NCBI GenBank assembly: GCA_963736005.1
Contig: CAVTNB010000003.1
Span: forward strand, 453,445-517,444
From: an uncultured Pseudomonadota bacterium
GTDB taxonomy: Bacteria > Vulcanimicrobiota > Vulcanimicrobiia > Eremiobacterales > Eremiobacteraceae
Length of the DNA stretch: 64,000 nucleotides
Direction: 5' to 3'
The translations under genes were made by a program, and so were the position numbers. Numbering within the stretch: position 1 is the first letter of the stretch; each line of letters begins with the position of its first letter. This document shows, piece after piece, positions 18,557 through 36,709 of the stretch. The notes under the pieces were generated by a model. The model was not told the DNA's origin. It saw nothing but the letters and a program-made list of their open reading frames with translations, and made no database searches.

Positions 18557-18565
18557 TCTCGATAA
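18543..18565. promoter_or_regulatory. Second copy of the palindromic Zur-type operator, overlapping the predicted znuA start
   Basis: TTATCGAGAATCATTCTCGATAA, identical to 7440-7462. Confidence 0.85.
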
Positions 18566-18576
18566 TTATCTAGGCT

Positions 18577-18633: not shown

Positions 18634-18640
18634 AATGACG

Positions 18641-18787
18641 CTAGGAGAGAACGGATTCGCGATAGCTCTCCATGATGTTGCGCACGTACGCCTGGGTCTC
18701 TGGGAAAGGCGGGACGCCACCGTATTTGTCGACGGCCGCGGGGCCCGCGTTGTACGCGGCGAGGGCGAGGTCGACCTGACCATGATA
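18641..18787 (-). pseudogene. 3' half of interrupted lytic transglycosylase
   Basis: [35 protein letters not shown] matches the SLT C-terminal motifs. Confidence 0.93.
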
Positions 18788-18842
18788 ATGGCAGGGACTA
18801 AGTGCGAACATACCTAAAGGACCGCCAACTGAGGTTTCTCCT

Positions 18843-20605
18843 ATGGTAAGTCCGTTCAAAGGTGGGGGATGTATGCGAGGGTTTCAACTAAAACCCAGGC
18901 AGACAAGAAGCTGTCGATCCCCGTTCAATTGGGCCTAATGAGGGCACATGTCAAGTCAAGTGGGTGGCAGGAGGTTGCAGCTTTCGAGGAGCCGGGGAAG
19001 TCCGGCACATTGGTCAAGCGTCTGCCTGTCTTGAATGGCCCTGATCGAGGAAGCCACTGGCCCAGCGCCCCGCTTCGACACGGTGCTAGTTTACGACATT
19101 TCCCGCTGGGGGGCCGCAACACGGATGCAGTCTTGGCAAAGGAAGTCATACGCCAGCGGGGGATTCGAGTAATTTATCTCGCCGAGCAAACGGGCGAGAC
19201 TGAGGAATCGGAGGACATTGAGGGTGCTGTTCGAATGGCTTGCCAAGATGCACAGCCGGTGTTCTGGCGCGCAAGGTTCCCAAAAGTCAACGTGAAGCAG
19301 TCAAGGAGGGCCGCTGGGGCAGCGGAGTGCCGCAAGTGTTCGGGTACTTCACACAAAAAGGAAAAGGTCTGGTCCCCAATCCACAGACGGCACCCATAGT
19401 TCTACAATGTTTCAAGAAGTACGCTGCTGGTGATCAATCCGCTCGATTGCAAAATGGCTAAACACAAATGTTTCAGCCCAGCGAGGCGGATCGTGGCGTA
19501 GTGGAACGGTCCACAACCTTCTTACTAGACGCGCGTACCTCGGGCACATAACCTACGGCGCTGCACCGAGTGAACGGTAAGCGTGTTCGACTTTCGACTC
19601 GAAGAGAGAACGGAAAATCCTAACCAGTACAAACGACTTGTGCTGCAGAGACTTTTCGATCAGGTTCAAGAACGTCTCAGCCGTAACGATCAGAGCCGCG
19701 CAGAAGGTTGTCTCAACGGAATGTGCTCGCGGTTGTCGGACGGTGCAAGTGCGGTTCAACTCTAACCTTTCAAAAAGGTGGTGGCCCTCGCAAGGACCGC
19801 AAAAAATATCGCTCGCTGGTTCTGGCACTGCAGCCGCTGTCGCCTGAATGTTGATCCGAGGCGCAATTTCGAGGGGTGCTACGGCTACTTTCCGCAGGAC
19901 GTAGTCGAGACGATGATTCGGGATAGGATGCATTTTCTTCTTGCTGCTGGTGGAATAAAGCAAGCCGTTCAAGCATACAATGCCGCTGCTGCTCAGGCCT
20001 CGGAGCCACCGGAACTTGCTACTCTCAAAACGATGGTCGATGGTCTCAGGAAGCGTGAGCGCAGCCTCGTTGAATTCATCGGTGACGGTTCTCGAAGTTT
20101 CGATGCCGTTGCCGAGGACCTGGAGAAAGCAAACGGACTGCCAGGATGCAGAAGAAAAACCTAGCACAAGTGCTGGCTCGGGTCTGCCAGATTCAATCAC
20201 CGATTGACGAAGCAGAGATTGAAGGCGCTTCTGATAAAATCCGCAAGGCCCTCAAAGCCGGAGACATTGCCAAACTAGCAGTTGTCTTACCTCACCTTGT
20301 GTCGAAGATTGAAATAGACTTCACGTTGCGACACGATACCGCAAAATACTGGCGCAGACGGGCACAAGATTTTCTTGAAACTCTTGCAAGAGAAACTCGC
20401 AAGAAGTGTGACGAGAAAAACATTTCTAGATTGGAAGTCCGCGTATGATGAAAACGACAAATTGCAGGCCGCTGCTCATCGTGGTCTCGTCATGCATCTG
20501 AAGTACGACATAGCTAACCTGGCTTCAGCCGGTCAAGAGGCTCTCGAAGCAGTTGGCGAGTATGCCCACGGGCACACTTCGGAAGCGTTACTCTCCAAAG
20601 CCTAA
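18843..20605 (+). pseudogene. Large serine recombinase (integrase), multiply frameshifted as assembled
   Basis: YARVST catalytic Ser, SIPVQL, EPGKSG; other frames give DTVLVYDISRW, FGY..LVPNPQTAPIV, SIAKWLN...W..GTVHNLLTRRAYLG, a Cys cluster and a coiled coil. Ends are approximate. Confidence 0.85.
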
Positions 20606-20622
20606 ATTCAACCGCATAACCC

Positions 20623-20647
20623 AAGAGGGCGACGGCCCTCTTCTTTT
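20623..20647 (+). terminator. Intrinsic terminator after the integrase
   Basis: AAGAGGGC-GACG-GCCCTCTTCTTTT. Confidence 0.65.
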
Positions 20648-20660
20648 CAAGGAAATTTCA

Positions 20661-21011
20661 ATGTCCGCCACAACCGTAATCAATTCATCCATAAGCCCAG
20701 GCCAATCCGTCTCGGGGACTTTCATGACGTCCGCTCCCTTCAGAGGGGTAGAGATTGTTCAAGAGCAGACAATGGCCCAACCAACCTTTCCCGGCGTGTT
20801 GGTCTCCTACCAAATCAGCCTAGACAATGGCACCACATGGTCAGATGCCCAGCCGGTTCAGCACGAAGCGAATGCCAGTATAAGTGGATCGGGAAACTCA
20901 AGCTCAATCTTGCTAAATGAATTCGCCACAACTGTAAAATTCAATGCGACCAACACCAACCGAGCCGTAGCATGCGCCTCCTTTGTGTTGGAGGCGGAAT
21001 GCTTCACCTAG
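20661..21011 (+). CDS. Small beta-rich hypothetical protein with Asp-box-like motif
   Basis: AAGGA SD, ATG 20661; YQISLDNGTTWS. Confidence 0.65.
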   Translation: MSATTVINSSISPGQSVSGTFMTSAPFRGVEIVQEQTMAQPTFPGVLVSYQISLDNGTTWSDAQPVQHEANASISGSGNSSSILLNEFATTVKFNATNTNRAVACASFVLEAECFT

Positions 21012-21393
21012 GATGAGATACTTAGAAGCCTCATCCCGAAGCAGTTGCGAAGCACCCGGAGATTCAAAACAGCTATTGTTGGATCGTTGAAAATAAATGC
21101 GGCAACCCCCAATGTCTGAACCCACTTCACCAGCTTGACAAACCGAAGGCTAAGAAATGAGACAGAATGATTTTAATTAAGGCAGTTTGCGTTGTACTTG
21201 TGCGCCTGGTTCTTAGCTTCTTTCGGGGCAAGAACTAATGACGAGGATCGACCGGCAGATTGACCTCGTCTTAAATTCCAAGAACCCGAGGCTCGCCAAG
21301 TTTCTTTTTGGAGAACGTGGGCTTCCGTTGTTGGAAGTTATCAAGCAACTAAGGGAACAAAAACCAACGGTAAAATCAGATAAGGATTAAACA

Positions 21394-22238
21394 ATGGGAA
21401 ACTTTCAAGATTTAACCGGACAGCGTTTCGGACGGCTAACAGTACTGCGATTGGCTGATAGAACTAAACCAGGATACTACCGTTACGAGTGTCTGTGCGA
21501 CTGCGGGAAAACTACCATCGTCCAGGGCAATGCCCTGCGCTCCGGTACAATAAAAAGTTGTGGGTGCCTGCGCCTGGAGCGGCTAAGGGAGTCTCTCCGC
21601 AGACGAATCGTACTGTCCGGCCCAGGGTCACCTAAATTTGCAGACCTTACAGGTCAAACATTTGGCAGGCTTACTGTTCTAGGTTATGCTGGCAAAAAAG
21701 GCGGGAGCACCTATAATTGCCTTTGCACCTGTGGCAACACAAAAATCGTCCTCGGGAGGTCTTTAACGACCGGCGCAACCAAGAGTTGCGGATGCCTGCT
21801 CATGCAGTTTGCCCAGGTTCCCTCCCGGTCATGCAGCCAGAAACTCTGTGCTGGATGCTTACAAACGAAACGCCCGTACGCGAAGCATCCCCTGGGAACT
21901 TACGGACGAACAGGCCTTCGCCCTATTCGAACAACCTTGCTTCTACTGCGGAGCAGCGAAGTCTTAACTCTACTGGACTGGGCGTACAAGGGGGAAAACC
22001 CCGCTGGAGAACTCCCTTCCAATATAACGGCATAGACCGTGTAGACAATTCTAAGGGCTACACGTCGGATAACGTAGTACCATGCTGCCACACCCATAAC
22101 AGAATGAAGCTCGATCTGACCTCTAGTCAGTTTTTAGATCAAGCGAAACAGCTTGTTATGATGTCCGAATCCCGAGCCGATCAGCACCTCTTTAACGAGT
22201 TGTCTCCTGAAGATTTCAACGGAGACTGGTTTGACTAA
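21394..22238 (+). pseudogene. Phage-type HNH endonuclease with two N-terminal DLTGQxFGRLTV repeats, two frameshifts
   Basis: First frame: repeats with CxCxCG and KSCGC. Middle frame: YKRNARTRSIPWELT...PCFYCG. Last frame: NGIDRVDNSKGYTSDNVVPCCHTHNRMK. Confidence 0.82.
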
Positions 22239-22310
22239 AAAGAAAAGGAGCCCCACTTTGCGTGAAGCTCCCTTAGTGAACCAGATTTCTATTCGATACG
22301 CTTGTCCTTT

Positions 22311-22490
22311 CTAGACCTTAGTGCTATGGGTTGCGGTCACGGCTTCTTCTAGAGCTTCCGTGAACTGTTCAATCCCGACCTTTGTCGAGAGGTTGAACAC
22401 ACCGGGAGTGCCGGTGTCAGTGTAGGCAATTTTCCAACTGCTCCGCTTCACGCCCGCTGGATCAGTCAGCGTGATTGTGTAGTGCTCCAT
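22311..22490 (-). CDS. 59 aa hypothetical protein (below the ORF-track cutoff)
   Basis: AAGGAG SD; MEHYTITLTDPAGVKRSSWKIAYTDTGTPGVFNLSTKVGIEQFTEALEEAVTATHSTKV. Confidence 0.6.
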   Translation of the reverse strand: MEHYTITLTDPAGVKRSSWKIAYTDTGTPGVFNLSTKVGIEQFTEALEEAVTATHSTKV

Positions 22491-22535
22491 TTTGATTTCT
22501 CCTTTGGTTTCTAGTGATTAAATGGGGCGATAAAT

Positions 22536-23659
22536 CTAATTGATGATCACGGTGGAGGTGGTGAAGGAAATGGCTTCGCTACCGGACTGGTCACGAGTGT
22601 GGTTACTGGGATCAGAGGCATGAACGACTATGTTACAAGAACCCGGTCCAATGGGCGTAACCGTGTATTGATCTTGATTGTCTCCGATTGGATTATCTGC
22701 AATTGTTGCGATTCCCGAGCAACGATCCGTCTCAGAAAATGAATAGCTGTCGTTTGTCGCGCCGGTTGCCGTGAATGTCTGTGCGAAGGTTGCACCGGTT
22801 GCAGTAAAGTTTAGCGCCGATGGATTTAGGGAGAGCGGTGCCGAGGTGTAAGCAACTAGTAGAGTTCCAAGCACGACTGAAGTGGTGCGCTCGTGGCCGT
22901 AATGGTATCAGTTGTTGCAGTGCCACCATTGTAGGCGTATGTAACGGCTGCGCCTGGTGCGCTCACGGATGTGGGATTGATCGTGGCAATGGAAGTCTGC
23001 GTGTTCGAGAGATTCACGGTTAGGGAATTCCCGGAAGAATCAATAAAGTTTCCGGGTCCGAGGATCGTTGCACCGCTTGCGTCCAAACCCGCGACGTTAA
23101 GTGCTTGACTCAGTGCTGTCCCCAGGAAAATTGGATTCGTTGCCAAGCTCATCGCAATACTGGAGACAACACCATTAACGCTTATATTTATTGTGTTGGC
23201 AACTCCAGCGAGTACCAAGTAGTTCACGGTTGCGGCACCGAGTAGATTACCAGTCGCACCTGAACCTCGGTAGAGCTTCACGGCAAAAGAATCTTCCGCT
23301 ACGGGTGCATTAACGGTGATCGAGCATGTGACCGGGGGTCCAGGAACGCACCGGGCGAGGTCGTGGTCAAGTTCTGGACAATCGGAGTGCCACCGTTGAT
23401 TGATATACTGACCGAGCCGGTTCCGGGAGAGATAAAGAAACGGTGGAACCTCGGTGTAAAGTCAACTGATGACACTCCTGTGCCCTGGCGGTGCAGGTAT
23501 ACGAAAGTAGAAAGTTACTGGTGACTTTGGACCTGATTGTGAGTGTGTGACCGGCGCAAGAGCACCGCCCCCGCCACCTCCGCAACCAAACATTATGGCC
23601 GCGACAACAATGGCAAGTATGCCGACTACCAGACCTATTCGATGATGAGTCAAAGTCAT
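22536..23659 (-). pseudogene. Ser/Thr-rich lipoprotein with Ig-like domains, frameshifted
   Basis: Lipobox MFGC-GGGGGG; fragments 23462-23659, 22856-23281 and 22536-22874 read as one beta-rich protein. Confidence 0.7.
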
Positions 23660-23798
23660 TTACTTTTTCCCTTTCTTGATCTTGAGTGAATTGCGATACA
23701 GAAAAGCAAGGACCTCGGGAGCGCAAGTCCCGTCGAATGTGCGAAGTCTCTTCTCTTAGGGATTCGTTTAGGAACGGGAACCTCTGGTCGCGAAAACC

Positions 23799-24170
23799 TC
23801 ACGAATGCATCCTGCGAACAGGTGAACAACCGCGTGATAGACAGCGGACCAGAACGTGACGCAGAGTAGAAATCCCGTGAACCAGATCAGTGGTAGCTCG
23901 ATAGCGTCGAAGATTTTCTGGTGAGTTTTCATGTGACTGCACAAAGCTCGTCGAGGTACTTAGCGTAGGCCCGGTAGACGTAGCACCGAGCTTCAGACAG
24001 ACGAAGAAGAAAGCATTCGACCATCCGCTATGGATGTTTTTGTGAGTGACGACCCAGACACGCGGACCCTGCTCCTCACCTTCAGGAACGATCAAAGCCC
24101 ATAACTCTGAAGTGTCGCCAACTGTAACGCGCCACAGGGCAATGACTTGCGATGGTTGTGAAAATTGCAC
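23799..24170 (-). CDS. Hypothetical protein
   Basis: 123 aa ORF with no recognisable motif. Confidence 0.3.
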   Translation of the reverse strand: MQFSQPSQVIALWRVTVGDTSELWALIVPEGEEQGPRVWVVTHKNIHSGWSNAFFFVCLKLGATSTGPTLSTSTSFVQSHENSPENLRRYRATTDLVHGISTLRHVLVRCLSRGCSPVRRMHS

Positions 24171-24316
24171 ATAGGATAATCTTCTTTCAGACGGAGCGGG
24201 CCGAGAATTATTAGTGCTCCAGCCGCTAGTAGTATTGACGGCTAGAAGCGCGGAACCCTTGAGTGTCCGTCATACCGGAACAGGAGTAGACGGAGCTGTA
24301 GGGGACACAAGGGTCC

Positions 24317-24560
24317 ATGCCCGGATACGCAAGGTTGCCGTAACCTGAGCGCCGAGACGTTCTCGGAGGCCCAGAAGCTGCTCATTGAGGCAACCAGGGC
24401 AGGCAGGCGGGTAAGTATGAGTGCTATTGTGGAGATTGCAGTGGCCCGCTTTGTGAAGCGACCTCCGAATGAAGTCGCGACCGCACTCAAGGGCGTAAAA
24501 GCCAGAAGATCACCGCCAGCTAAAGAAGCCGCTAAACCAACTTTCAAAAGAGAAAATTGA
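24317..24560 (+). other. Possible ribbon-helix-helix DNA-binding protein (5' frameshift)
   Basis: Stitched reading RKVAVNLSAETFSEAQKLL...VSMSAIVEIAVARF fits the RHH pattern. Confidence 0.35.
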
Positions 24561-24561
24561 A

Positions 24562-24975
24562 ATGACCATAAATGTGCCCTTATATGCTTTTGCTCAGGAT
24601 GGATTCAACGGAAGCATACAGGTCGATACCATAGTTCTGGAATGTCAGTTTGACCAACAAGTCATTGCTCCGGTGAACCCAGGTGAAGAAGCCAATCAGA
24701 TTCCACCGAATCAAACCGGTTACCGAAGAAACGAGCCGATGTGATCCCTCAATTCCCAATTGCTTCCGTGGAGCTATCCCTTGCCGGTGGCTGTCAATGC
24801 CGAGCAGTGTTTCGCAATTTTGTCGGTAACAAATCCACAGAATCAAACCACGAACTACAATTTTGTAATGATGGATTACCTAACGATGAATATGAACACG
24901 TCCCGAGCGGTCTTTGAAACCCTGGGCATCAATCGACTCCAAGTAACGATCACCAAGTGGAATCGAGTTTCTTAA
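24562..24975 (+). CDS. Beta-rich hypothetical protein, probably one frameshifted gene
   Basis: Adjacent ORFs 24562-24744 and 24760-24975. Confidence 0.45.
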
Positions 24976-25067
24976 CGGCTACGAAAAAGAAGAAGTCGCA
25001 GCACTCGCCACTGAGTAGCAAAAAGAAAAGCCCCTGAAGATCAGAAGCTCAAGCGAAGGATTTAGAG

Positions 25068-25926
25068 TTAGTAGCGGCGGATTCTCTTGTACGAGTCCTT
25101 CGATTCCTTCGGTCTGCCTCTCTTTGGGGGCTCCAAACTCAGACCGAGAATCGAGAGCAGACTAAACCCAGACTGATAATTCTCACCAGAAGCATTGAAC
25201 CCAATCTGTCGATTTCCCGAGTATGGACCAGCACCGAGGATGATGAGCGCTGACCCATTACGCGACTTCCTGACTGATTGCGGATGTGAGCATGGCGCGG
25301 ATCGACGTAGGACCCACGCCTTACCTGTCTTGGGTGATACGTAGCCGCCTATTTCGAGCATCTTGGCAATATCACGCAGGGACTTGCCCTGAGCCTTCCA
25401 TAGCCTTCGCGCGGCCCAAATGCTTCATCGCAGCAGGATCAGGAACGATTGAGTACTCTGACGGGTCCATCCAAAGGGGGTCCGAGAGTAGCTTTATGGT
25501 GTGCTTGATGAGCCAGCACGTCGCGCACACGCTCAGATGCGGATTTTCTCTCCAGGCAAACACGTTCACCATGAGGTTCAAAACCATTCGACCTGTTGGT
25601 GCGGTGTCCAGTGACTCACCAAGCGAACACAGTGCAACATTGTGGCGGGCAAACAACTGCAACAAGAACTGACAATCTGCAATGGATCGAGTTAGACGAT
25701 CAAGCTTAGTGACGAGCACAGCGGAGACTTCACCAGCACGAACCATTTTGATTAGCTGATCTATGCTAGGGCGCTTGAGTGAGCTAGCGCTGGCATTGTT
25801 CACGATGATGTCACTAAGGACTCGATCCGTTGCCACCGCGTAAGCGGCTAGTTTGTGCTGCTGCATTTCAACGCTGTTGGGCTGCTCCGAGGTGGAAGTT
25901 CGAGCATACCCGAGTACCTTTGCCAT
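25068..25926 (-). pseudogene. Resolvase/invertase-family serine recombinase with C-terminal HTH, frameshifted
   Basis: GYARTSTSEQ, KRPSI, VTKLDRLTRS, DTAPTGRMV; other frame LRDIAKMLEIGGYVSPKTGKAW. True 3' end uncertain. Confidence 0.85.
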
Positions 25927-26659
25927 TGGAAACGCCTCCGTTCAGTGCCTACCTACTGAACATTCTACTCCTACCCTACCGAAACCGCAACCTGGCAAAA
26001 TCCCTTTTTGAGGCTGTTTCCTACCCTGCAGCCTCCGATTCCATGAAGGGGACCCTTACGTCGATTCTAGCCCGGTTTCCGGCCAATTGTGGGTATTCTG
26101 GAGGGGTGGTGCCTGGACACCCTGATTCTTGACCCACCTGGACCGGGCCTGAAAGCGAGCAGCGGAGCGCGAGCGGTAGCTCGGAGAAGCCTTATGGTGC
26201 CCAGGTTGGAATCCTAAGAGTGCCGATACCTTACTTTTAGTAAGTTCTTTTTGGCCCCCTTAGCTGGGTCGGCAACGTAAGCAATTTTAGCGAGCGATGA
26301 GGTGGTCCATTGAAGACGGTCGATCCTGAGGCTTCCCTACCCTCACCGCAGCACGATCCAAGTACGCGGGGTATCTAACCATCCAAAGCGTGATCGAACA
26401 CCCCATAATGGTCAGTCTGTTCACTCCTGGTCAGAACTGCACACTGCCGTATACTGGCCGGTATTTTCAAAGTCTCTATCCATGCGGGTTTGCGGGCGAA
26501 ATCCTTGCCTGATCCATCCTCGCTCCTTGGCAGGGGGAACTCTTGCGGCACCGTCCTTCGGGACACAAATTGTCCCGCACCACTAGGAAGTTGCTGGCCC
26601 CCTAGCGCCGATTGCCAAATCCAAAAATCTGACCGGCTCGATAAAAAATTCCAGAAAAA

Positions 26660-26740
26660 ATGCGGTCCCTAATCCGGTCCGTATGCGGTCCGTATAGGTT
26701 CGGTATAGGGTCCGAATGCGGTCCGCGATCTGCGGACCCT
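26660..26740. repeat. Tandem 11-bp repeats (consensus ATGCGGTCCGT), 6-7 copies
   Basis: Units at 26660, 26672, 26683, 26694, 26705, 26716 and a variant at 26730. Confidence 0.85.
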
Positions 26741-26766
26741 ATTTCCCCACACGAAAGGTAAAACAA

Positions 26767-27621
26767 ATGACTCTTTCCACGTCACTAACCTGCGAGAACT
26801 GTTCAAAGACGTATCAGCCCGAGCGAGCCAATCAACTTAAATACTGTTCAAAGAAATGTCGACGCGCTGCAATGAGACAGCGAAAAACCCAGGTTGAAGT
26901 CCCTACGCCTGAGCCCACGGCAGATACCCAAGCTGACGGGCCCTTCGCAGGGTTCCCTTTGATAGAGGCTCAGATGGGCGACGTGCGGGCCAATGAACTG
27001 TTCGCGGAACTAGGGCGACGTGATTCAACCAAGGCAGAGATCGAGTCACTGGTTCGTAAAGAACTGATCCACCGAAGATTGGAATTAGAGTACCAAACAA
27101 AGCGCAGCGGTGGAGAGCCTGACCTTCCCGCCCTCGATGAAATCAAGCGCCTGGAACTGAGCATCCTTCGGCTCAAGGTTGACCTCGGACTGAATTTTGA
27201 CCAAAAGAGACAGCGCGGGTCGACCAAGACAACTGCTGGGCAAATGATATCCGGCTTTTTGGATGTATTGGAAAGATTCTCGCCGGACCAAAAATTGACT
27301 TTCGACCGCGAACAGACCGAGGCGCTCGCAGCGGCACAGACGCGCGTGGATGCACCAGACTTTGGCAGCAGATACAAAGAGACTCGCGAACGTGAACGTC
27401 AGGAAGAAAATCCCGGGCGCGCTGCTAGTGATCGACGAGTCAAAAAGCTCATCGAGGACGCGGAGCGCTCGGGGAAAATTCCGTCTCGATCAGGTGCAGC
27501 GCTACCGCCATTGGACGAAGCACTTCCATTGGATGCACCCACTGAAGTCGCTGATCCCGTTGAGAATCCAAGCCCGAACCGGTTCCAGAAGAAGCTCCCC
27601 CACCGGCACCTGGTCATCTAG
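26767..27621 (+). CDS. Zn-finger protein with possible terminase small subunit-like region
   Basis: CENC...YCSKKC; PALDEIKRLELSILRLKVDLGL resembles the P27-type TerS C-terminus (weak). Confidence 0.5.
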   Translation: MTLSTSLTCENCSKTYQPERANQLKYCSKKCRRAAMRQRKTQVEVPTPEPTADTQADGPFAGFPLIEAQMGDVRANELFAELGRRDSTKAEIESLVRKELIHRRLELEYQTKRSGGEPDLPALDEIKRLELSILRLKVDLGLNFDQKRQRGSTKTTAGQMISGFLDVLERFSPDQKLTFDREQTEALAAAQTRVDAPDFGSRYKETRERERQEENPGRAASDRRVKKLIEDAERSGKIPSRSGAALPPLDEALPLDAPTEVADPVENPSPNRFQKKLPHRHLVI

Positions 27622-27881
27622 CTGGGCGTCCAGCTTTGACTCTGGAGCAGGCGCGCGAGCAAGCCAACAAAGTGTTTAGCAGAGGCGGCACAGGCTTGGC
27701 GTTGGACGACTTCCGACTCCCAAGGTCCACAAACAGGTAAGGTTTTAAATATCCCAGGAATCTAGCGGGACAGACAAAGCTTATGGATAAAGGGATAGAG
27801 CAACGCAAAAAAAGATTCTGTAGGAATACTGTTGACAAACCTTGAAAAACCTGATAGGCTACGAGAAGATGTGAGGATTCC

Positions 27882-27911
27882 TTGACAAGCTGTACCCAAC
27901 TATGGTATAAT
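27882..27911 (+). promoter_or_regulatory. Consensus sigma70 promoter
   Basis: TTGACA-18 nt-TATAAT with extended TG. Confidence 0.8.
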
Positions 27912-27957
27912 ACCTTGTGATGGGCAGAACTTACACTTTGTCGCGTGATCTAAGATG

Positions 27958-27988
27958 AACCGCCTCTGCCCAGGCGGTTTTCTATTTT
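27958..27988 (+). terminator. Intrinsic terminator ~45 nt after the promoter
   Basis: AACCGCCT-CTGCCC-AGGCGGTT-TTCTATTTT. Confidence 0.7.
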
Positions 27989-28557
27989 GTGAGGAGAGGC
28001 CAGTTAAGAATCGCTGGACACACATTTGGGACGCTAACGAGGGGCAACTCGATCCGCTAAAGGTGCTTAAGAAAATAGCGGAGTGCCAGTGTGACGACTG
28101 CATTGCCATATTCTTGTTGCTTCAGAAGGCGCAGATAGCGCATGAATCAGGCGGAGACATGCGAGCGGTTATGATGGAGGCCTACGAGCTTGACGTGAAG
28201 GGATCAGAAGTGTTGGAGGCACCTCACTTTGAACCTGAGGGCACCGATGAAGAGACAGACTAAGTCGAAGCCCGTGCTCGCCGCCCTCGGGCTCTCGCGG
28301 GGAAAGATGCGGCTTCGAGTGATCCCGTGCGATTGGGACTCTCCGATCCTCTTTGCGATTCCCGAACCGCGAAATCGCCCGCAATGCAATGGCGGCATTC
28401 GAACACGCCGAGGCCGGATTGCGCGGTGCCGATCAATGGTGCAAGAAGTGTCGCCGCTACGTCCTCTGATCTAACCTAAAGCAAAGTTTTCAAAGTTTAA
28501 TGGGTAGCACCGGCTACTCTTGTTCATTTGTTCCCGGAGGATTCTCAGTTGGTTTAG

Positions 28558-29109
28558 ATGTCAGAACCCCTACAGATCGACCGCAGATGCATTGTCTGCG
28601 GTCAACCGCTTCACGGGCGACAGATAAAATTTTGCGATTATCAGTGCGAAGTAAAGCACACAAACGAATCGAGAGCACAACGCAAGGCAAACGGCAGACC
28701 AGCGGCAGGTTACTGCCTGAACTGCAAACAGTTTACTCGGTTGCGCTTCATCGAGAGAACGTTGTGCCGATCCTGTTGTGACCGCAGAGACAACCCCGAA
28801 GTTCTTGCCGAACTCAGAGACCGCACCCGTCAAATTGCAATTGCAGCAGAACGGTGCTACAACCCGGCTTCATGGGCCTGGGAAACCCTCGTCCATGAAT
28901 ATGGCATCGACCCTGAGCTTGTGGAGATTCTTGCCCCATGTGGGAGGCACCAGACAGCCTTTACAGGGCAATCGTTAAGGGAAACTTCGGGTCACACCCA
29001 TGCGGACGAAAGAAGAAACCACGCCGGTCAAGTGAGGTTCCTGGCGAGCAACTGCCGCAGACCCCGGAGGCCTGGTGAAAGAGTTTCGTGGAAACTCAAA
29101 GGTCTGTAA
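28558..29109 (+). CDS. Cys-rich zinc-finger protein
   Basis: CIVCG...FCDYQC, CLNC...LCRSC. Confidence 0.6.
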   Translation: MSEPLQIDRRCIVCGQPLHGRQIKFCDYQCEVKHTNESRAQRKANGRPAAGYCLNCKQFTRLRFIERTLCRSCCDRRDNPEVLAELRDRTRQIAIAAERCYNPASWAWETLVHEYGIDPELVEILAPCGRHQTAFTGQSLRETSGHTHADERRNHAGQVRFLASNCRRPRRPGERVSWKLKGL

Positions 29110-29187
29110 ACAGCATACTAATAGTGAGAAGAACTTTTCTCGTACCCAGTCGGATGACGAAAACGTCACCAAATGAATGGAGGTCTA

Positions 29188-29445
29188 ATGCGAATTACTT
29201 TACTGCGCGTGTTGCGTCAAATCCACGAAGTATCACTTCAGGACTTAGCGGAGGCCTGTGAGATGACTGCCCAGCGGATTTCACTGATCGAGCTTAACCG
29301 CGCTAATCCTTCTTTGGAACAGAAGAGAGCATTGGCTACCTTCTTCGGTGTGCCAAGTTCAATGATCCTCACCCGCGTCGACAATAACTTCTTAGCCGAA
29401 CTCAAGCAAGCTGCTGTCGACAAACTCACAGCGGCTGTCGCCTAA
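29188..29445 (+). CDS. XRE-family HTH regulator
   Basis: LRVLRQ..VSLQDLAEACEMTAQRISLIELNRANPS...LATFFGVP; GGAGG SD. Confidence 0.88.
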   Translation: MRITLLRVLRQIHEVSLQDLAEACEMTAQRISLIELNRANPSLEQKRALATFFGVPSSMILTRVDNNFLAELKQAAVDKLTAAVA

Positions 29446-29481
29446 CTACTCAAACCACTTCATCGGAGAAAAGGAAAACCC

Positions 29482-29964
29482 ATGACCACAGAACCAAAAC
29501 AGCACTGCATTCGTTTCCGCTACCTACGCAACATTTCGATTCACCTGCCGAACGGACAGATTGCAAACATTCCACACCGCACGGTGCCAGTGCAAACGTC
29601 GATCCCGGTAAGGGGATCGAGACCGGTCGAATACTGGCAGGCGATGAGTTCGGAGTTTGACCTTACGGTCATACATGAGGTCTGCTTAAAATCAGAAACG
29701 CCCATGGTGCCCGAGGACACAGACTCTCTCACGCCACTGATGCGCGCAGAAGTCGAGAAAGAAGCCATTGCTGCCGCCAGTGCAAACCGTCGCGAGAATG
29801 ATCGAGTAAGACGCTACTTACACGGCCTCGCCGCTGAGAGTACCTCAGACCTGGGTGACGGCAGAATCGTGACCATACCAGCCACCGTCGAAATCGTTAG
29901 CGACAGCGAAGCAACGGCGATGCGCCCGATGCAAACCCATGTGAGCGAGCAGAATAATGGATAA
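29482..29964 (+). CDS. Hypothetical protein
   Basis: AAGGA SD, 160 aa. Confidence 0.65.
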   Translation: MTTEPKQHCIRFRYLRNISIHLPNGQIANIPHRTVPVQTSIPVRGSRPVEYWQAMSSEFDLTVIHEVCLKSETPMVPEDTDSLTPLMRAEVEKEAIAAASANRRENDRVRRYLHGLAAESTSDLGDGRIVTIPATVEIVSDSEATAMRPMQTHVSEQNNG

Positions 29965-30316
29965 CGCCACCGACATTATCACTCGACTTGAACACATGCT
30001 CCAAAGAAAGCACAAGCTCGCGGTTCTGTTCCAACAGCTAGACGGTGAACTGGGCGGGGCAGCGGCAAAGGTTGCCGAGCTTCAGACTGAGCTTCGCCGG
30101 GAGTGGAATTCCAAACGCCTCTGGGCCCACTCAGATTCGCCGGATTCCGTTGCTATGCGTGATCTGTTGGACCGTCTCGAAATTCTAAGAGAAACGCTGC
30201 AACCCGAGCGGCAGAGTGTGCTGCTGCCTCCGAATTATCTGCCTGGGAATTCTCCGTTCGGCACCTCCGTCAAAATGGATGCAACGAAGGGAATACATGA
30301 AAAGTCGCTCCGCTAA
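29957..30316 (+). CDS. Hypothetical coiled-coil protein
   Basis: Overlaps the previous stop; helical heptads. Confidence 0.6.
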   Translation: MDNATDIITRLEHMLQRKHKLAVLFQQLDGELGGAAAKVAELQTELRREWNSKRLWAHSDSPDSVAMRDLLDRLEILRETLQPERQSVLLPPNYLPGNSPFGTSVKMDATKGIHEKSLR

Positions 30317-30348
30317 CATTCCGAGGAACATAAGGCTCCGATCACATC

Positions 30349-30594
30349 GTGAAAGCCGCGACCTTCTGGATGTCTACGCCTGTGGCCGAACGCGGGAAAC
30401 TTGAACGCGAAACAGCCACCTCTGTCGGACCTAAGAAGGTTGCAACTCCTGAAATGATCAGCACGGTTAGGAAGCGCAACGCTGAAAAGCAGCGCGAATT
30501 GAATGTCAGAGAAAAGGTTGCCCGAGTCATCGATCCCGCCTTTCGAGAGAAAGAGCGCGCGGAAATTGAGAAGCTCCTCGATTCGACATACTAA
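30349..30594 (+). CDS. Hypothetical protein (true start may be near 30297 with a frameshift)
   Basis: Charged helical ORF continuing the operon. Confidence 0.45.
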   Translation: MKAATFWMSTPVAERGKLERETATSVGPKKVATPEMISTVRKRNAEKQRELNVREKVARVIDPAFREKERAEIEKLLDSTY

Positions 30595-31136
30595 AAGTAT
30601 TGGGCATGGCGCACACGGCTATATGCAACGGTGCGTTTGCAACCCAAGGCCTGAACGTTTTCAGTAACAAGTAGGGCCACCGGACGAATCCCGAGTTTGT
30701 TTTTGGAACTGACCTCGCAAGAGGCCTTAGACAACAGCGGGATTTGTCCCCAAGATTTTCAAGGATTACCCGAGCCCACATTGCCTTGAGGGCGAACCCC
30801 CCATCCCCTTGTGGATTCCATCGGATGGTCCCATGCAACCGACCATTTTCTTCATAGCGTGGTGCGGTTGAGCGAGCGGTACTCATTCTACGCGCTCGAA
30901 GTCCTGGCTTCATTTTCGGTTGGGCAACACTCGCGGGTAACTTGGACGGTCGCCCGCGAGGAAGTTTTTCTCATGGCACAGTTTCTATCGTGGTTCTTTC
31001 CTTTACACGATTTGAAACACGGGAATATGGTGCTGGCCCCGGTCACCTAATGCCGCAACACCGGGCACACTTTTTCAGAAAGTTAGATTTTTTTGCGATT
31101 TCGAAAAATAATCGAGCCCACTCGTGACCCCGCTAG

Positions 31137-31334
31137 TTTCCCGGTATATGCGTAAGACCCCAACCCGGAGAAGATTTTGAAAACTTACTTCACAGGTTCA
31201 AAAAGAAAATTGCCTCAAGTTTTATTCTCGGTGAGTATCGCTCGAAACAAAGCTACAGAAAGCCGAGCGTAGCCCGCAAGAGCAAGCATAATTTGGCGTT
31301 GAAAAGACGCCGTAAAACTAATTCCACAATTTAG
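31137..31334 (+). CDS. rpsU: Ribosomal protein bS21 homologue (no in-frame canonical start as assembled)
   Basis: PGICVRPQPGEDFENLLHRFKKKIASSFILGEYRSKQSYRKPSVARKSKHNLALKRRRK fits the bS21 pattern L.RFKK....IL.E.R....Y.KPS..RK.K. Confidence 0.8.
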   Translation, partial: FPGICVRPQPGEDFENLLHRFKKKIASSFILGEYRSKQSYRKPSVARKSKHNLALKRRRKTNSTI

Positions 31335-31482
31335 AAGGAACACCAAATGACCAAGCCACTCACATGGGAAGATTTTCCACCACCGTTGACCGATGAACAG
31401 ACCCGCATCATCGCCACATGGATCGAATTATCGGAATCCCTGTGGATGATGCGACTGTTCGAAACTTCCGGGATGGTGCAAG

Positions 31483-31665
31483 ATGAAGAGACGTAATCGC
31501 AAGCGCAAGCGCATTGAGGACCTTGAGGCTGCTAACGAGTGGCAAGCTTTGGAGATGATGCGCCTTCAAACTGCACTCGCATTCATCGAAGCAAGGCGCG
31601 CAGCGTATCCTCACCTGCCGGACTCGATCCGACTAGCCACCCCCGCACTGCGAGAAATAAAATGA
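31483..31665 (+). CDS. Small hypothetical protein
   Basis: 60 aa, coupled to its neighbours. Confidence 0.5.
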   Translation: MKRRNRKRKRIEDLEAANEWQALEMMRLQTALAFIEARRAAYPHLPDSIRLATPALREIK

Positions 31666-31955
31666 CAGAGGAAATTTACCGTTGTGTTCGGCGAGCGCGT
31701 TCTGTTGCCGAGATGCCGTGGCCGTACTCGACTATAGAACGACAGATTCACAAGGCCCGCAGTCCGAAGTGGTGCATGGCATGTAAGATCATGATAAACA
31801 AGGGTACGGAATATGTTTCCCTTTATGCTGGGCTTAACTACCACTACTTCCATTTGTCCTGTGAACCGTCACGAGACGAAGTCGAGTTGACGACATTGAA
31901 AAGCTGCAAGCGGTTGTGTGGGGTGCAGTTACCTATTCAAGAGAAACTATTGTGA
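31662..31955 (+). CDS. Small zinc-binding phage protein
   Basis: KARSPKWCMACKIMINKGTEY...FHLSC. Confidence 0.6.
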   Translation: MTEEIYRCVRRARSVAEMPWPYSTIERQIHKARSPKWCMACKIMINKGTEYVSLYAGLNYHYFHLSCEPSRDEVELTTLKSCKRLCGVQLPIQEKLL

Positions 31956-31969
31956 AAGTGAAAGTGAAA

Positions 31970-32212
31970 ATGAACAAAAAACTAGCCAATAGTAACCTGA
32001 AACGTACAACTAAACTTGTGGCTGCTGCAATAATCAGCCACTATTCAAAGAACAACTTCCCTTCTGCGGCTGCATTGGCCGCTGAGTTGAAAGTTTCTGC
32101 CCGCACGGTTCAACGCTCGTTCAGTGAGCTACGGGAACGCGGGCTACTCAAAACTGACAAGCGCGACGGGCGCGGAAACGAATCCACCCTAGTTCGCCAA
32201 GTCATTCTCTAA
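31970..32212 (+). CDS. Winged-helix DNA-binding protein
   Basis: FPSAAALAAELKVSARTVQRSFSELRERGLL. Confidence 0.8.
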   Translation: MNKKLANSNLKRTTKLVAAAIISHYSKNNFPSAAALAAELKVSARTVQRSFSELRERGLLKTDKRDGRGNESTLVRQVIL

Positions 32213-32259
32213 TTCACCGGATCACCCGGTCACTAATACGCAAAGGAAATCAAAGAAAC

Positions 32260-32475
32260 ATGACACACTCTGAAGTGGAGTGCGCCCTTCTTGAATTTGG
32301 CCTATGGCCCGAGAAGGTCGAAATGCTCCTCGATAAGTACGAACCCGAGTACCTGGCACGGTTTATCCGCGCCATTGATTACCTGGGCAGCTACAAGTCA
32401 GCACAGAAGTTGGGATTCCTCCCGGCGCATATATGTGCGGAAATCCGCAAGGGTCACGTTCCCCGGAGAACCTGA
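32260..32475 (+). CDS. Hypothetical protein
   Basis: AAGGA SD, 71 aa. Confidence 0.55.
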   Translation: MTHSEVECALLEFGLWPEKVEMLLDKYEPEYLARFIRAIDYLGSYKSAQKLGFLPAHICAEIRKGHVPRRT

Positions 32476-32490
32476 AAGCCAAGAGCCGGG

Positions 32491-33513
32491 GTGACGACGA
32501 TGACCGCCAAGTCTAAAACCTCGAAGCCTTTCTGTAAGTTCCCCAATGAGTTCATGGGATTGGACCTAACCCCACGAGCAAAAATGGTGGCTGTTAGATT
32601 GATGGCCTATGGTGGAACGTCGCGAGCCATCTATCCGCGCCAGGATCGACTAGCCAAGGAGACCGGTCTGTCTGTGCGCTCGGTTCGAGATTCGATCAGG
32701 GAACTGGAAAAAGCCCATCTAATCACCAGTGAGCAGAGGGGAAGAGGTTGCTCTAACCGGTGCTACCCTACCCCGAAGATGGCCGTAATGTTTGACTATC
32801 AGGGGCAAACCGGAGACCCAAGCCTACGACAAAATGTCACAGATGACCGGCAGATTCCGTCGTCAAGACCGGCAGATTCCCCCGGTCAGGATGACGAAAT
32901 TTGCCGGTCCATAGTAACAGAGCAGTCTAATAATAGATTATCTGTAATAGACGGAAATTTGGGTCAAGACCAAAATAATGGTAGATCAGCTAATCATGGT
33001 AATGGCTGTATTGATGATTATGATGCATCTGCTCTGTTATCTAATGGGCAAGCGTCAATAGAACCAAAACCTCCTTGTGACGGAATTTGCCGGTCATCTA
33101 TGACACTCCCAGACCGCATCGGCTACGACAGGATGGTAGCCGTCGCGGGCCGATCCAACGCCGACCTCCTCCGACTGTGGGGCATCGAAGGCGGGACCGC
33201 CGAGGAACTGGGTGCCGACTTCGACCGAACCAGAATCATAAACCAAATTCATTGGCTACCCTATCGTGCGGGGAAGAAGCCAAGCGGCGTTCTGATCCGG
33301 TCTGTTCAAGACAACTACGTGCGTCCTGATCTGACGGTTTCGGAGATAGCCGAGGTTGAAGCTGCAATCTCCGAAGGTCTGGTCCCGATCCAATCAATCG
33401 AGAAGGCGTTGAAAGCCGAGGATGAATTCGCTACGTCACAGTATGTGCAGCCCGAGACTACTCATGCTCCCGGCTGCAACGATCCAACGTGCGAAGGCTG
33501 CGACCTCTTCTGA
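32491..33513 (+). CDS. Phage-type replication initiator with N-terminal winged HTH
   Basis: IYPRQDRLAKETGLSVRSVRDSIRELEKAHLI; low-complexity middle encoded by iterons and an AT-rich tract. Confidence 0.78.
   Translation: MTTMTAKSKTSKPFCKFPNEFMGLDLTPRAKMVAVRLMAYGGTSRAIYPRQDRLAKETGLSVRSVRDSIRELEKAHLITSEQRGRGCSNRCYPTPKMAVMFDYQGQTGDPSLRQNVTDDRQIPSSRPADSPGQDDEICRSIVTEQSNNRLSVIDGNLGQDQNNGRSANHGNGCIDDYDASALLSNGQASIEPKPPCDGICRSSMTLPDRIGYDRMVAVAGRSNADLLRLWGIEGGTAEELGADFDRTRIINQIHWLPYRAGKKPSGVLIRSVQDNYVRPDLTVSEIAEVEAAISEGLVPIQSIEKALKAEDEFATSQYVQPETTHAPGCNDPTCEGCDLF
32845..33095. other. Putative replication origin (iterons plus AT-rich region)
   Basis: GACCGGCAGATTCC at 32845 and 32867; inverted variants at 32896-32909 and 33082-33095. 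Confidence 0.7.
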
Positions 33514-34017
33514 ATCGGAGAGGGTGAGAACTAAAGGAAAAGGCCCCCGGAGGGGCCTGGGTTCGTCACCGCTTTGGTTTACGGCTACCGAATGTGATCT
33601 TGATGTTCAACAAAGTTAGGTGGATTATTGGAAGGAACACCTGTACATTTGATTACCTTTCGCTGTAACCGAATCGGGCGGTGTTTTTTCCTCGTATAGT
33701 ATACCACATCGAACGCGGGCTCTACAAATGGAAGCCAGAAACAAAACCAAAGTTACTTCGTGGTATAATAGAAGCTCTCTGCAATCTCTGGGGTAAGGGG
33801 AACGCATGGCTGATAACAGAGACATTGCGCTGGCACTGGCACCGATAGGGGCCTAGGTTGGCGGTGTAACCGAGGCTCTGAAAACTTTTGTCCAAACACT
33901 CCCCGATGATGTGCGGAACAGCAGCACGTTAGAGATTTTTGAGCAGAAGATGCTAGACAATCTAACGGGGATCAATTCGGCATTGGATTTGACCGGGCGT
34001 CTGTTAGGGGCTTGGAA

Positions 34018-34179
34018 ATGAAGTTCGGAAAAATCCGCAGAGGCTTGTACAAAGCTGGCTCTATCTTGGGCGATGCCGGAGCGCTGTCGAGCGGCAAACC
34101 CAAGAGGATCGTGAAGCGCGCCGAGACTCACATCCTGTGGCGATGGTTGGGCCCGACACTGAGGAGACTGTTCCGGTAG
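34018..34179 (+). CDS. 53 aa basic amphipathic protein at the element's right end
   Basis: MKFGKIRRGLYKAGSILGDAGALSSGKPKRIVKRAETHILWRWLGPTLRRLFR. Confidence 0.55.
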   Translation: MKFGKIRRGLYKAGSILGDAGALSSGKPKRIVKRAETHILWRWLGPTLRRLFR

Positions 34180-34262
34180 GTCCCCCGGCACCCGGATTTT
34201 GGTGAACCAGGCGCGATGCCCGAGCCCTCGCTCATATCTAGTTGCACTTCGTCTCTACCGGT

Positions 34263-34805
34263 ATAGCGATCGAGCAGTTCCCGCAAAAGCGTGGTGCCAC
34301 CGTCAATATTTTGCGCCGGATCGAATGGATTTTTCACGCCGAGTGACTTTGCCGTACCCGGCATGAGTTGCATGAGCCCCATAGCACCGGCTTTCGAGAC
34401 CGCGTCTGCTTGGAAACCAGATTCTTGGTTGATCACCGCGTTGACTAGCTGAGGATCAACTTCATGCCGACGGGCTGCATCGCTCACGATGGACCCGTAG
34501 CGATGGAAACTCGGCCGCGGGGTTGGAGTGGATCCGCCATTGCAAGATGCTTTGGGCGCGGGCGTGCCGACATTGATTTGTCTCAGCGCTTGCATGAGCT
34601 GTTTCTCGAGGGCGGACAACTGATGCGAGAGATCGCGAATGAGCGCTGCGAATTGTTTATCGATGCTCGAAAACGAGCTGGCTGACGAAGGAGCCTGCGC
34701 GGGTTCCCCCTCTTCTTCTTGCTCGTTCTGGCCAACCGGCATCATTGGATTGTAGATTGGCATCTGCGTCGGCATACCGGCGGGATTGGTTGGGTTGATG
34801 TTCAT
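34263..34805 (-). pseudogene. 5' half of interrupted lytic transglycosylase
   Basis: GGAGG SD; AVINQESGF (catalytic Glu), AGAMGLMQLMPGTA, PFDPAQNIDGG; homology stops at LLDRY. Confidence 0.93.
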
Positions 34806-34862
34806 GAAAGCCTCCACCTTAGGGCAGCGTCACACCTGTTATCACGCGCATCGACGCAGCGT

Positions 34863-36167
34863 CTAGCGCAATGCGCCGGCGATCTGTACCAGCTTCTCGA
34901 CCGCGTCGGTTTGGCAGCCCCGTTCGTGGAAAAGAAAACTTTCGATGCGCTCGCGTTGCGCGACCGCCGAGTCAAGCAACGGGTCACCTCCTCGCACGTA
35001 GGCACCGATGGCGAACAGGTCTTCGGCGCGCTCGAGTGCGGCCAGAGCTTTGCGCACCCGCGCCGCGCAGGCAAGGTGTTCCTCGGAAACGATGTGATGC
35101 ATAACCCGGCTGGAGCATCGCAAGACGTCGATGGGAGGATATCGGCCCGCGTCCGCGAGCCGGCGTGAAAGGACGATGTGACCGTCAAGCAATCCGCGCA
35201 CGGCATCGGTGATCGGCTCGAACGGATCATCTGCATCCACGAGGACTGCAAAGATGCCCGTGATGCTCCCACGCTCCCGAACGCCAGCTCGCTCAACGAT
35301 CGTCGCCAGTTTGACGACCATTGAGGCCGGATGACCTCGGTGGGCTGGAAGCTCACCTGATGCCAGCGCAAGCTCTCGCCAGGCGTTCGCTACTCTGGTA
35401 AGAGAATCAACGGTGAGCAAAACGTCGTGACCACGCTCGCAGAGCCATTCTGCTTGTGCGATTGCGGTGCGAGCGGCCGCGAGTCGTTCGTGTGGAGGCG
35501 CGTCGGCGGTAGCGCAGACAATGCTTGTTCGCGGCCAGCGCGGTGTCTGGCGCAGTGCCGTGACAGTCTCTGCCGCCTCTCTGCCGCGTTCTCCAATCAG
35601 TGCGAGGACATGCGCATCGAAATGCGCGTGCTCCGCGATCTGCCGCAATAACGTGGATTTTCCAACGCCGGCCCCGGAAAAGAGTGCGACCCGCTGGCCA
35701 ATGCCGATCGTACAGAGTGCGTCAATAGCCGTAATGCCGGTCTGAATGGTTCGTTGGATCGGACGGCGCCGCTCCAAATTCAACGGGCCATCGTGAACCG
35801 CCATGACCTCGCAGTTCGGATGGGCGGGACCGCCCCACGCATTGACGCACCGTCCCAACAGGCCCTGGCCGCAAAAGGATCCTAAGACAGCGCGGGTCGC
35901 AGTTACGTTAGCACCAACCGTGACGTCGCGAATTGACTCGATCGGCACGCAGGTCGCTTCCCCTTCAGACACTGAGCGCACCTCGGCGAGACGGATGTCA
36001 TCTCGCTGCGTCTCGATCGCAATGAGATTGCCAGGCGCAACTCCTCGGATGCGCGCGACGACTGCCGTTGGCTCGACTCGCAACACGGTGCCTACGCGTA
36101 CCCATCCGTCGCATTCTCGATAGCTCAGCGGCATTTCATGTCGCATCCAAGTTTCCAGTGTCAGCAT
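34863..36167 (-). CDS. fliI: Flagellar/T3SS export ATPase
   Basis: GAGVGKST, LIGERGRE, DSLTR, LDGHIVLSRRLA..GRYPPIDVL. Confidence 0.93.
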   Translation of the reverse strand: MLTLETWMRHEMPLSYRECDGWVRVGTVLRVEPTAVVARIRGVAPGNLIAIETQRDDIRLAEVRSVSEGEATCVPIESIRDVTVGANVTATRAVLGSFCGQGLLGRCVNAWGGPAHPNCEVMAVHDGPLNLERRRPIQRTIQTGITAIDALCTIGIGQRVALFSGAGVGKSTLLRQIAEHAHFDAHVLALIGERGREAAETVTALRQTPRWPRTSIVCATADAPPHERLAAARTAIAQAEWLCERGHDVLLTVDSLTRVANAWRELALASGELPAHRGHPASMVVKLATIVERAGVRERGSITGIFAVLVDADDPFEPITDAVRGLLDGHIVLSRRLADAGRYPPIDVLRCSSRVMHHIVSEEHLACAARVRKALAALERAEDLFAIGAYVRGGDPLLDSAVAQRERIESFLFHERGCQTDAVEKLVQIAGALR

Positions 36168-36709
36168 TCCGCAGCCGCCCGAACCAAGAGTGCGGCCCGC
36201 GTCTGGATGTCTGCTTCGACACGCGATCCGTCGCAGTCGATCGTGACCTCGCCGAATTCTAAGTTTTCGTCGCTTTGGTGTGCCGAGATCGAATGAGGTG
36301 TCGGCCTACCTGCGGCGGCAAGCGCGTCGTCGACGAAGCATGCAAGCGCTTGAGGATGCACAAAAGCAACGTGGCGTAATGCCCGCCCGCACGCGATGGC
36401 CGCCAGCCGAATCGCTTCGTTGCGGATGAGCTGTCGGTGATCGCAGACTGGCGGCGTGCGGTCTGCAGAAAGGTCGGCTTTTGCGGGCTCAAGGTCGGGG
36501 GACTCGATTGACGGGTGGGGCTCGACAGGCGCGACTAGTTCAACCGCTACAGCCGAACTCTCTGATTCGCTGTCCGCTGCGGCGTGCTCGGAGGGTTGGA
36601 GCTGGCTGTGGCACTCCCCAGCCTCATGAACCTCAAGCCCGCGAGTCAAACCGGCAAGGCGGCGAGGCGTGAAGGGCAAGAATTCCACCTCAGGTGTGCG
36701 TTCGTCCAT
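36161..36709 (-). CDS. fliH: Divergent FliH-like protein
   Basis: Position before fliI; C-terminal GEVTIDCDGSRVEADIQTR. Confidence 0.6.
   Translation of the reverse strand: MDERTPEVEFLPFTPRRLAGLTRGLEVHEAGECHSQLQPSEHAAADSESESSAVAVELVAPVEPHPSIESPDLEPAKADLSADRTPPVCDHRQLIRNEAIRLAAIACGRALRHVAFVHPQALACFVDDALAAAGRPTPHSISAHQSDENLEFGEVTIDCDGSRVEADIQTRAALLVRAAAEC

Follow-up and report, generated by a model that had tools for sequence, protein, structure and literature searches.

The window, by which we mean the whole analysed stretch of 64,000 nucleotides, contains an integrated island that differs from its surroundings in GC content (0.48-0.55 between about 19 and 34 kb, against 0.57-0.63 outside) and that carries, besides recombinase, endonuclease and regulator genes, an open frame encoding the core of ribosomal protein bS21 (Table 1). 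The borders of the island were derived from three genomes of the same genus (G002, G003 and G001), all of which have an empty site with adjacent flanks. On the contig of G002, window 16600-18787 (left flank, 90% identity) reaches as far as position 1349378 and window 34263-36700 (right flank, 87% identity) starts from position 1349376, and the alignment of the junctions places the crossover at a common ATA; the adjacency of the flanks and the junction alignment together delimit the island to approximately 18788-34262. A preliminary description of the window, made from the letters alone, had proposed an integrated element of some 15 kb with the bS21 frame ahead of replication genes. The element is indeed there, with a length of 15.5 kb and absent from all three relatives, and the frame does lie upstream of genes for replication-initiator-like proteins; in view of the empty sites, the precise junctions and the matches of island genes to PHROG families, it belongs to a mobile element and not to the core genome.

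The insertion has split a host gene for an SLT lytic transglycosylase, of which an intact orthologue of 235 aa is found in G002 and which adjoins a gene that, judged by eye, presumably encodes a FliI-like ATPase. No long direct repeats flanking the island were found in the repeat search; for a serine integrase such repeats are not expected. Just outside the left border, at 18576-18634, lies a palindromic pair (26 nt, 88% complementary, 7 nt apart), and the 26-mer resembles a dispersed repeat of the REP type, with dozens of copies in G002 and several in G001 and G003.

Table 1. Features of the island, of the bS21 frame and its upstream stretch, and of extra bS21 genes in other genomes of the class. 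Positions are those of the window unless a locus is named.
Feature	Position	Strand	Remarks
Integrated island	18788..34262		About 15.5 kb, lower GC; junctions share ATA
Host SLT lytic transglycosylase, 3' part	18641..18787	-	Last 48 codons
Host SLT lytic transglycosylase, 5' part	34263..34817	-	Pfam SLT; cut by the island after ...LLDRY
Degraded large serine recombinase	18869..19568	+	Left end; Resolvase and Recombinase fragments in different frames
HNH endonuclease, split	21394..22238	+	Overlapping frames 21394-22035 and 21717-22238
Second serine recombinase	25372..25926	-	Resolvase positions 1-117 of 145 only, then family likeness ends
HTH_3/HTH_31 regulator, repressor-like	29173..29445	+	Pfam, PHROGs
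Sigma-70-like promoter match	31002..31031	+	TTTACA-18-TATGGT, 9 of 12; only plus-strand match in the 540-base gap
Likely remnant of N-terminal extension	31098..31136	+	In frame with the core; alignment to P0001 and P0012
bS21 frame	31137..31334	+	65 codons, then TAG stop; complete bS21 core; no ATG, GTG or TTG
Near-cognate start candidate ATA (Ile)	31146..31148	+	Only one in frame
ATG-started frame MRKTPTRRRF	31148..31180	+	10 codons, ends TTT TGA; read from the sequence
Small HTH_36 protein	31916..32212	+	Like replication initiator / DnaD N-terminal domain
HTH_36 replication-initiator-like protein, 340 aa	32491..33513	+	Inverted and direct repeats inside the gene (I1, D2, D19)
bS21 fusions in prophages	L114, L122 (G191); L115 (G039); L116 (G196); L117, L123 (G189); L118 (G170); L119/L124 (G162)		L119/L124 broken
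Short bS21 with extension (MYDRRREPRPLPCSGVKIE...)	L128 9923-10102 (G128)		Large terminase at L128 10105-11514

The bS21 frame is bounded by TAG 31134-31136 on the one side and by its own stop, TAG 31332-31334, on the other, and the in-frame translation of 31041-31334 ends in KNNRAHS-stop-PR-stop-FPGICVRPQPGEDFENLLHRFKKKIASSFILGEYRSKQSYRKPSVARKSKHNLALKRRRKTNSTI-stop. The peptide of 65 residues quoted in the preliminary description is the exact translation of 31137-31334. The frame was correctly said there to be missing from the ORF list, since it holds neither ATG nor GTG or TTG. The Pfam profile Ribosomal_S21 (PF01165), a search with which had been put forward as a check, matched the frame with an E-value of 1.3e-11 and a score of 44.4 bits where the curated cut-off is 27, and the resemblance to bS21 is thus far above chance. 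The match connects residues 6-59 to profile positions 2-55 of 55 (54/55 covered), so the whole domain lies in one open stretch, with no internal stop or frameshift; in a scan of the whole genome the frame scored 43.4 bits. PHROG 21469, 'ribosomal protein S21', matched with an E-value of 1.4e-7; the sequences of PDB chains yielded 23 matches at E ≤ 0.01, all 23 of them bS21 (best 1.2e-6); and a HMMER search of 1.84 billion representatives recovered 272 proteins at E ≤ 0.001 (best 1.2e-10), where the 51 that were examined among the matches listed were all bS21-like. A word-indexed protein search found no close relatives of the window peptide.

An alignment of 44 sequences has one invariant position, F18, and the near-invariant positions E9, R17, K39, P40 and K47, all of which are kept in the window sequence, and the conserved bS21 core (E before the first helix, R-F-K-K, K-P-S and the basic C-terminal helix) is present. 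The AlphaFold2 model made with this alignment has a mean pLDDT of 92.8 and helices at residues 11-25, 27-35 and 40-61. Foldseek connected the model to bS21 chains from ribosome structures in rows 1-17 of the PDB matches (TM 0.70-0.79, rmsd 1.4-2.6 Å), with E-values of only 0.015-1.4, which are that high because the chain is very short, and with a model that was itself built from a bS21 alignment. The profile, the PHROG family, the PDB sequences and the predicted fold all point to bS21, and frame 31137-31334 encodes a genuine bS21 homologue, as had been proposed at the outset; a lack of any profile or structure match, which was named there as the outcome that would speak against it, is not what was found. 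Damage inside the conserved core was not seen: the core of 62 codons has no stop or frameshift, and its 44.4 bits compare with 42.7 for the intact relative P0001.

The two closest relatives of the window copy are P0001 (82 aa, 50% identity) and P0012 (174 aa as called), both of metagenomic origin, which start about 19 residues upstream of the window core; the upstream part is MYRYNRAPSTSDQDHSFPGVCVRP in P0001 and MYKYNRAPIASEDFPLHGISVRP in P0012. Two further proteins, P0007 (...FEIGICIIPRPGEDFE) and P0016 (...NGMCVYKKPGEDGE), likewise extend upstream of a G-[IM]-C motif, and all four thus extend upstream of G-[IVM]-C. Of these four, P0007 counts 2 members and each of the others is a singleton; their contigs are between 1.5 and 5.9 kb long. 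Most of the N-terminally longer matches in the search of representatives look like over-extended ORF calls of ordinary rpsU and not like fusions. A word-indexed protein search with P0001 or with the alignment of the three sequences returned only P0001 itself. The DNA loci of the relatives were sought in several collections: none was confirmed among genome contigs, none was found among plasmids, viral contigs gave one distant locus each time, and metagenome contigs gave 79 loci, all of ordinary or distant bS21 (29-63% identity) and none with the extension. The island DNA at 30600-33600 had no match in 40 relatives. A profile built from the window copy, P0001 and P0012 gave 126.8 bits for the window ('1 TGA, 1 TAG' inside the match) but no more than 56.5 bits for any other among 401 genomes of the phylum, from which the lineage of the window bS21 appears to be rare; some bS21 match was recovered in 367/401 of these genomes, a tally that includes 16 unpublished ones, from which no particular conclusion is drawn.

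The rpsU gene of the host is located on another contig (contig 1), has an ATG start, and adjoins what we take by eye to be a GatB/YqeY-like gene; in the genome search it scored 78 bits and the island copy 43. Both copies belong to one family and share core motifs (RFKK, Y-x-KPS), but they are only 45% identical, compared with 50% between the window copy and P0001. A tree with the host rpsU had been recommended in the preliminary description. We made a quick maximum-likelihood tree (69 rows, LG+G4), which with as few as 62 columns is indicative only; it groups the window copy with P0001 and P0012 (SH-aLRT 22), then with P0026 (70), and places these in a clade of 12 rows together with bS21 copies from prophages of a sister family (SH-aLRT 82), with the host rpsU elsewhere. 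With tree support that is weak to moderate, the window bS21 does not appear to be a recent copy of the host rpsU.

The earlier remark that no in-frame ATG is present was accurate and extends to GTG and TTG: there is no canonical start between TAG 31134 and the stop. The GTG at 31124 is, as stated before, one base out of frame, and it reads VTPLVSRYMRKTPTRRRF followed by a stop; as an ancestral start it was rejected, the similarity to the relatives continuing upstream in the bS21 frame. The window stretch stop-FPGICVRP shares FPG-x-CVRP with P0001, and the TAG falls exactly where P0001 continues; this TAG stands directly before FPG and a TGA three codons earlier. The stretch 31098..31136 reads ATT, S-K-N-N-R-A-H-S, TGA (31125-31127), P-R and TAG (31134-31136), where the ATT sits at the place of the Met of P0001 and P0012, and ATT-S-K-N-N-R-A-H-S-TGA aligns with MY[RK]YNRAP of the relatives at ATT=Met, K, N-R-A and S. 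The observed score of this upstream segment was reached by 88/5000 shuffles for P0012 and by 170/5000 for P0001, and by 56/15409 and 192/15409 stretches, respectively, in a scan of the island; the far-upstream similarity to the extension of the relatives is suggestive only. Compared with the intact relatives, the window copy has lost the start and has premature stops. What is robust is that the relatives are coding upstream of FPG, that the window has two stops in this part, and that a canonical start is absent from there to the conserved core. Since FPG[IV]CVRP and, suggestively, K-x-NRA keep to the bS21 frame on the upstream side, no frameshift is needed. The preliminary description had left the choice between an indel and a non-canonical start; the part that supposed an indel near 31135-31142 is not supported, as the upstream similarity stays in frame, and a start at ATA 31146 may be used but would be weak.

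Immediately ahead of the bS21 frame, an otherwise dense array of plus-strand genes is broken by some 540 bases (30595-31136) in which no gene could be recognised. The matches to promoters are weak, as 0.9 sites were expected and 2 observed. Pfam had no match for the ORFs in and around this gap (30811-31047, 30942-31124, 30530-30913 on the minus strand, and 30349-30591). Rfam had none in 18000-35000 at E-values up to 1, which indicates that no known leader or riboswitch precedes the bS21 frame.

The content of the island was derived from a scan of 23 ORFs against Pfam and of 22 against PHROGs, in which no capsid, tail or terminase family was matched; the PHROG matches comprise an integrase, an HNH endonuclease, a repressor-like HTH protein and a replication initiator. 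All three recognisable enzyme genes (3/3) are broken. Of the large serine integrase two pieces are left, one of Resolvase at 18869-19021 (profile 3-49 of 145) and one of Recombinase at 19407-19568 (profile 10-64 of 102), the latter with one TGA inside; the halves of the HNH endonuclease are matched by PHROG 374, and by PHROGs 3322 and 1035; and further pieces of the second resolvase were not found downstream of its truncated domain. ORFs of at least 120 aa cover 0.49 of the island, against 0.76 and 0.90 of the host flanks. The host genes in the window are intact and up to 1009 aa long, and the broken island genes are thus not a general assembly problem: the island is decaying. As the integrase is dead, the split of the SLT gene is probably permanent. 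The right half of the island (26.7-33.5 kb) keeps a tidy array of open genes. For the initiator-like protein of 340 aa, the protein atlas shows a likeness to HTH_36 clusters at 0.96. Inside its gene, at 32835-33105, we found an inverted repeat of 27 nt whose arms are 93% complementary and lie 217 nt from each other, a tandem pair of GACCGGCAGATTCC with 22 nt between the copies and a direct repeat of 18 nt; these repeats may represent an origin embedded in the initiator gene. Two ORFs, 20553-21011 (+) and 22536-23281 (-), are rich in Ser, Thr, Asn and Gly, and one of them scores 18 bits, below the cut-off of 23.6, against an Ig-like chitobiase C-terminal domain; both may be what is left of surface proteins or of proteins like tail fibres.

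Extra bS21 copies were recovered in 8/301 genomes of the class (query: fusion protein of G191, E ≤ 1e-12), namely G191, G039, G196, G189, G170, G162, G128 and G294, where they occur in packaging regions of prophages. Seven of these copies are fusions of 152-164 aa that consist of a beta-barrel N-domain (MSDFKVGDxVRVRSARR...), a disordered linker and bS21, only the last of which is recognised by Pfam; in residues 9-53 the model of the fusion has five beta strands (pLDDT 81-89), followed by the disordered linker and the helices of bS21. The gene order in G191 and G039 is bS21 fusion, a gene of 111 aa and large terminase. In G128 a short bS21 lies directly upstream of the large terminase gene and ends about two bases before its start, a place that a small terminase gene often occupies. 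G294 (L121) has a short extra bS21 with an N-terminal extension as well. These prophage genes of the sister family resemble the window copy in that they belong to the same clade of the tree, have integrated phage-like DNA of this bacterial class as their carrier, and possess an N-terminal extension ahead of the core. Unlike the window copy they are intact, either with the N-domain or as short proteins with MYDRRREP..., and they adjoin a large terminase. The other island genes of at least 60 aa had no match in the 7 neighbourhoods of prophage bS21 genes, and the profile of the prophage N-domain had no match in the window (E 13). That the 540-base gap could be a degraded copy of this beta-barrel domain was considered and rejected: the profile, made from 7 sequences, reached 2.6 bits, and the weak pairwise tblastn matches at 30913-30981 (E 0.38 and 1.2) concern a piece that ranks about 26 among 2218 six-frame pieces.

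Taking these observations together, the window copy is probably a recently inactivated bS21 gene of a mobile-element lineage. The 15.5 kb element, which also held a serine integrase and genes of phage type, would have brought in a bS21 of this rare lineage and would have inserted into the lytic transglycosylase gene of the host. The ancestral gene would have begun about 19 codons further upstream, as in the two closest relatives; its extension would have lost the Met (now ATT) and gained two in-frame stops, which would leave an intact core without a canonical start, and the integrase, the second recombinase and the HNH endonuclease of the island would have been broken as well. The inactivated copy would no longer supply bS21 to ribosomes. 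An ancestral upstream start, a recent inactivation and an absence of expression are what we infer from the sequence comparisons: the intact core together with a still-recognisable extension suggests that the loss was recent, and the combination of no canonical start, two stops upstream and a decaying island makes a role in translation doubtful, including the retuning of translation initiation that was suggested in the preliminary description. Against inactivation it may be held that all three disabling changes fall in the extension and none in the core, and damage limited in this way would also fit a lineage that has dropped the extension and starts at the core. Such a start would be the near-cognate ATA at 31146, from which bS21 might still be made at a low level, the extension being dispensable; we consider this unlikely, although not to be dismissed lightly. 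The product, M-CVRPQPGEDFE..., would be a bS21 of normal length that would join host 30S subunits at the platform, beside the anti-Shine-Dalgarno tail, a place shown for a phage bS21; the intact core with its full Pfam coverage speaks for this reading. The ATA aligns with the Met of P0016 (G-M-C-V) and is one residue from the Met of unextended bS21s (M-A-C-V), e.g. P0008, P0009 and P0039, but this position holds Val in P0001 and Ile in P0012, the closest relatives, which continue upstream to their own starts. A promoter-like site is found 105 bases upstream of the ATA, and there is no pairing with the anti-Shine-Dalgarno sequence in front of it (+0.7 kcal/mol), though the use of such pairing is weak genome-wide: host gene starts pair no better than random positions and a Shine-Dalgarno test of candidate starts accordingly says little. 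In E. coli, AUA is reported to initiate with an efficiency of about 1-2% of that of AUG, other constructs having given 0.02-3% (bioRxiv 10.1101/063800), and a phage bS21 to enter the ribosomes (PMC6375957), but at 1-2% of AUG the product could hardly compete with the host bS21, and the element around it is decaying.

A wider version of continued activity is less plausible still, namely that temperate phages and islands of the class carry their own lineage of extended bS21 (with an MY... peptide or a beta-barrel) which would tune or hijack the initiation of translation for late genes or would have a second role in packaging, with the window copy as an active, low-dose member started at AUA. We hold it to be rather improbable that errors in the assembly consensus conceal an intact gene with an ATG and no stops in the extension. 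The genome consists of 6 contigs and has an estimated completeness of 84%, a combination that can accompany error-bearing long-read assemblies, and the island may be strain-variable with lower coverage; yet this supposes at least three separate substitutions, where long-read errors are typically indels, and the host genes in the window are long and unbroken. A programmed +1 frameshift like that of prfB, with a start at ATG 31148, a slip before TGA 31178-31180 and continuation as ENLLHRFKKK..., has the least to recommend it and is very improbable. The short frame MRKTPTRRRF does have the arrangement of ATG, 9 codons and T-TTT-GA, with exact re-pairing of tRNA-Phe, and a +1 slip on TTTT at its end would enter the bS21 frame at ENLLHRF. 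However, the stretch that would be bypassed, CVRPQPGEDF, is conserved in frame 0 among the relatives (CVRPKPGGEAI, ICIIPRPGEDF, AVRPQPGESI) and is therefore coding in that frame, an upstream stimulator resembling a Shine-Dalgarno sequence was not seen, and slip sites of this kind arise by chance; the short frame with its slip site is probably coincidental.

Genes for ribosomal proteins on viruses and mobile elements are an argument for the reprogramming of host translation, and bS21 is the commonest example, with 88% of the viral ribosomal-protein genes in one survey (PMC6375957). The bS21 genes of pelagiphage HTVC008M, of huge Bacteroidetes phages and of Microcystis phage Mel-JY01 (RpsU) share with the window copy the Pfam family and a mobile or viral carrier, and the Mel-JY01 protein is its best match in the phage collection (44% identity). 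Phage bS21 is presumed to act by replacing the host bS21 on the 30S platform (PMC6375957, PMC9723584), and in the huge Bacteroidetes phages the gene is described beside TerL and capsid genes (PMC9723584). The carriers are mostly lytic or large: among cultivated phages bS21 was reported only in genomes above 130 kb, and only 3/1310 viral contigs with bS21 looked temperate (PMC6375957), which agrees with the opinion in the preliminary description that phage bS21 is known mostly from larger phages and that a 15 kb carrier is unusual. The window copy differs in its carrier, a 15.5 kb integrated island without detected structural genes, and in being without a start codon and probably dead. In Francisella, as here, a second bS21 gene occurs in one genome; those paralogues are reported to be expressed, to regulate gene expression and to change the composition of ribosomes (PMC9578407), whereas nothing indicates expression of the window copy. 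Virus-borne bS21 is thus well known, and what is unusual here is a small integrated carrier without structural genes, with a copy that is probably non-functional.

It follows that bS21 is not confined to large lytic phages but can also be carried by a small integrated element, and that a clean profile match does not prove a working gene: with no start and a decaying element around it, the window copy should not be counted as a functional auxiliary gene. A full-text search for prophage-borne bS21 or a bS21 fusion gave none in the titles and abstract openings of the matches listed. Better candidates for a function of bS21 in temperate phages are the intact prophage genes next to the terminase, with their extension or beta-barrel; two of these fusions, both from G191, are 87% identical and lie at different places of the chromosome.
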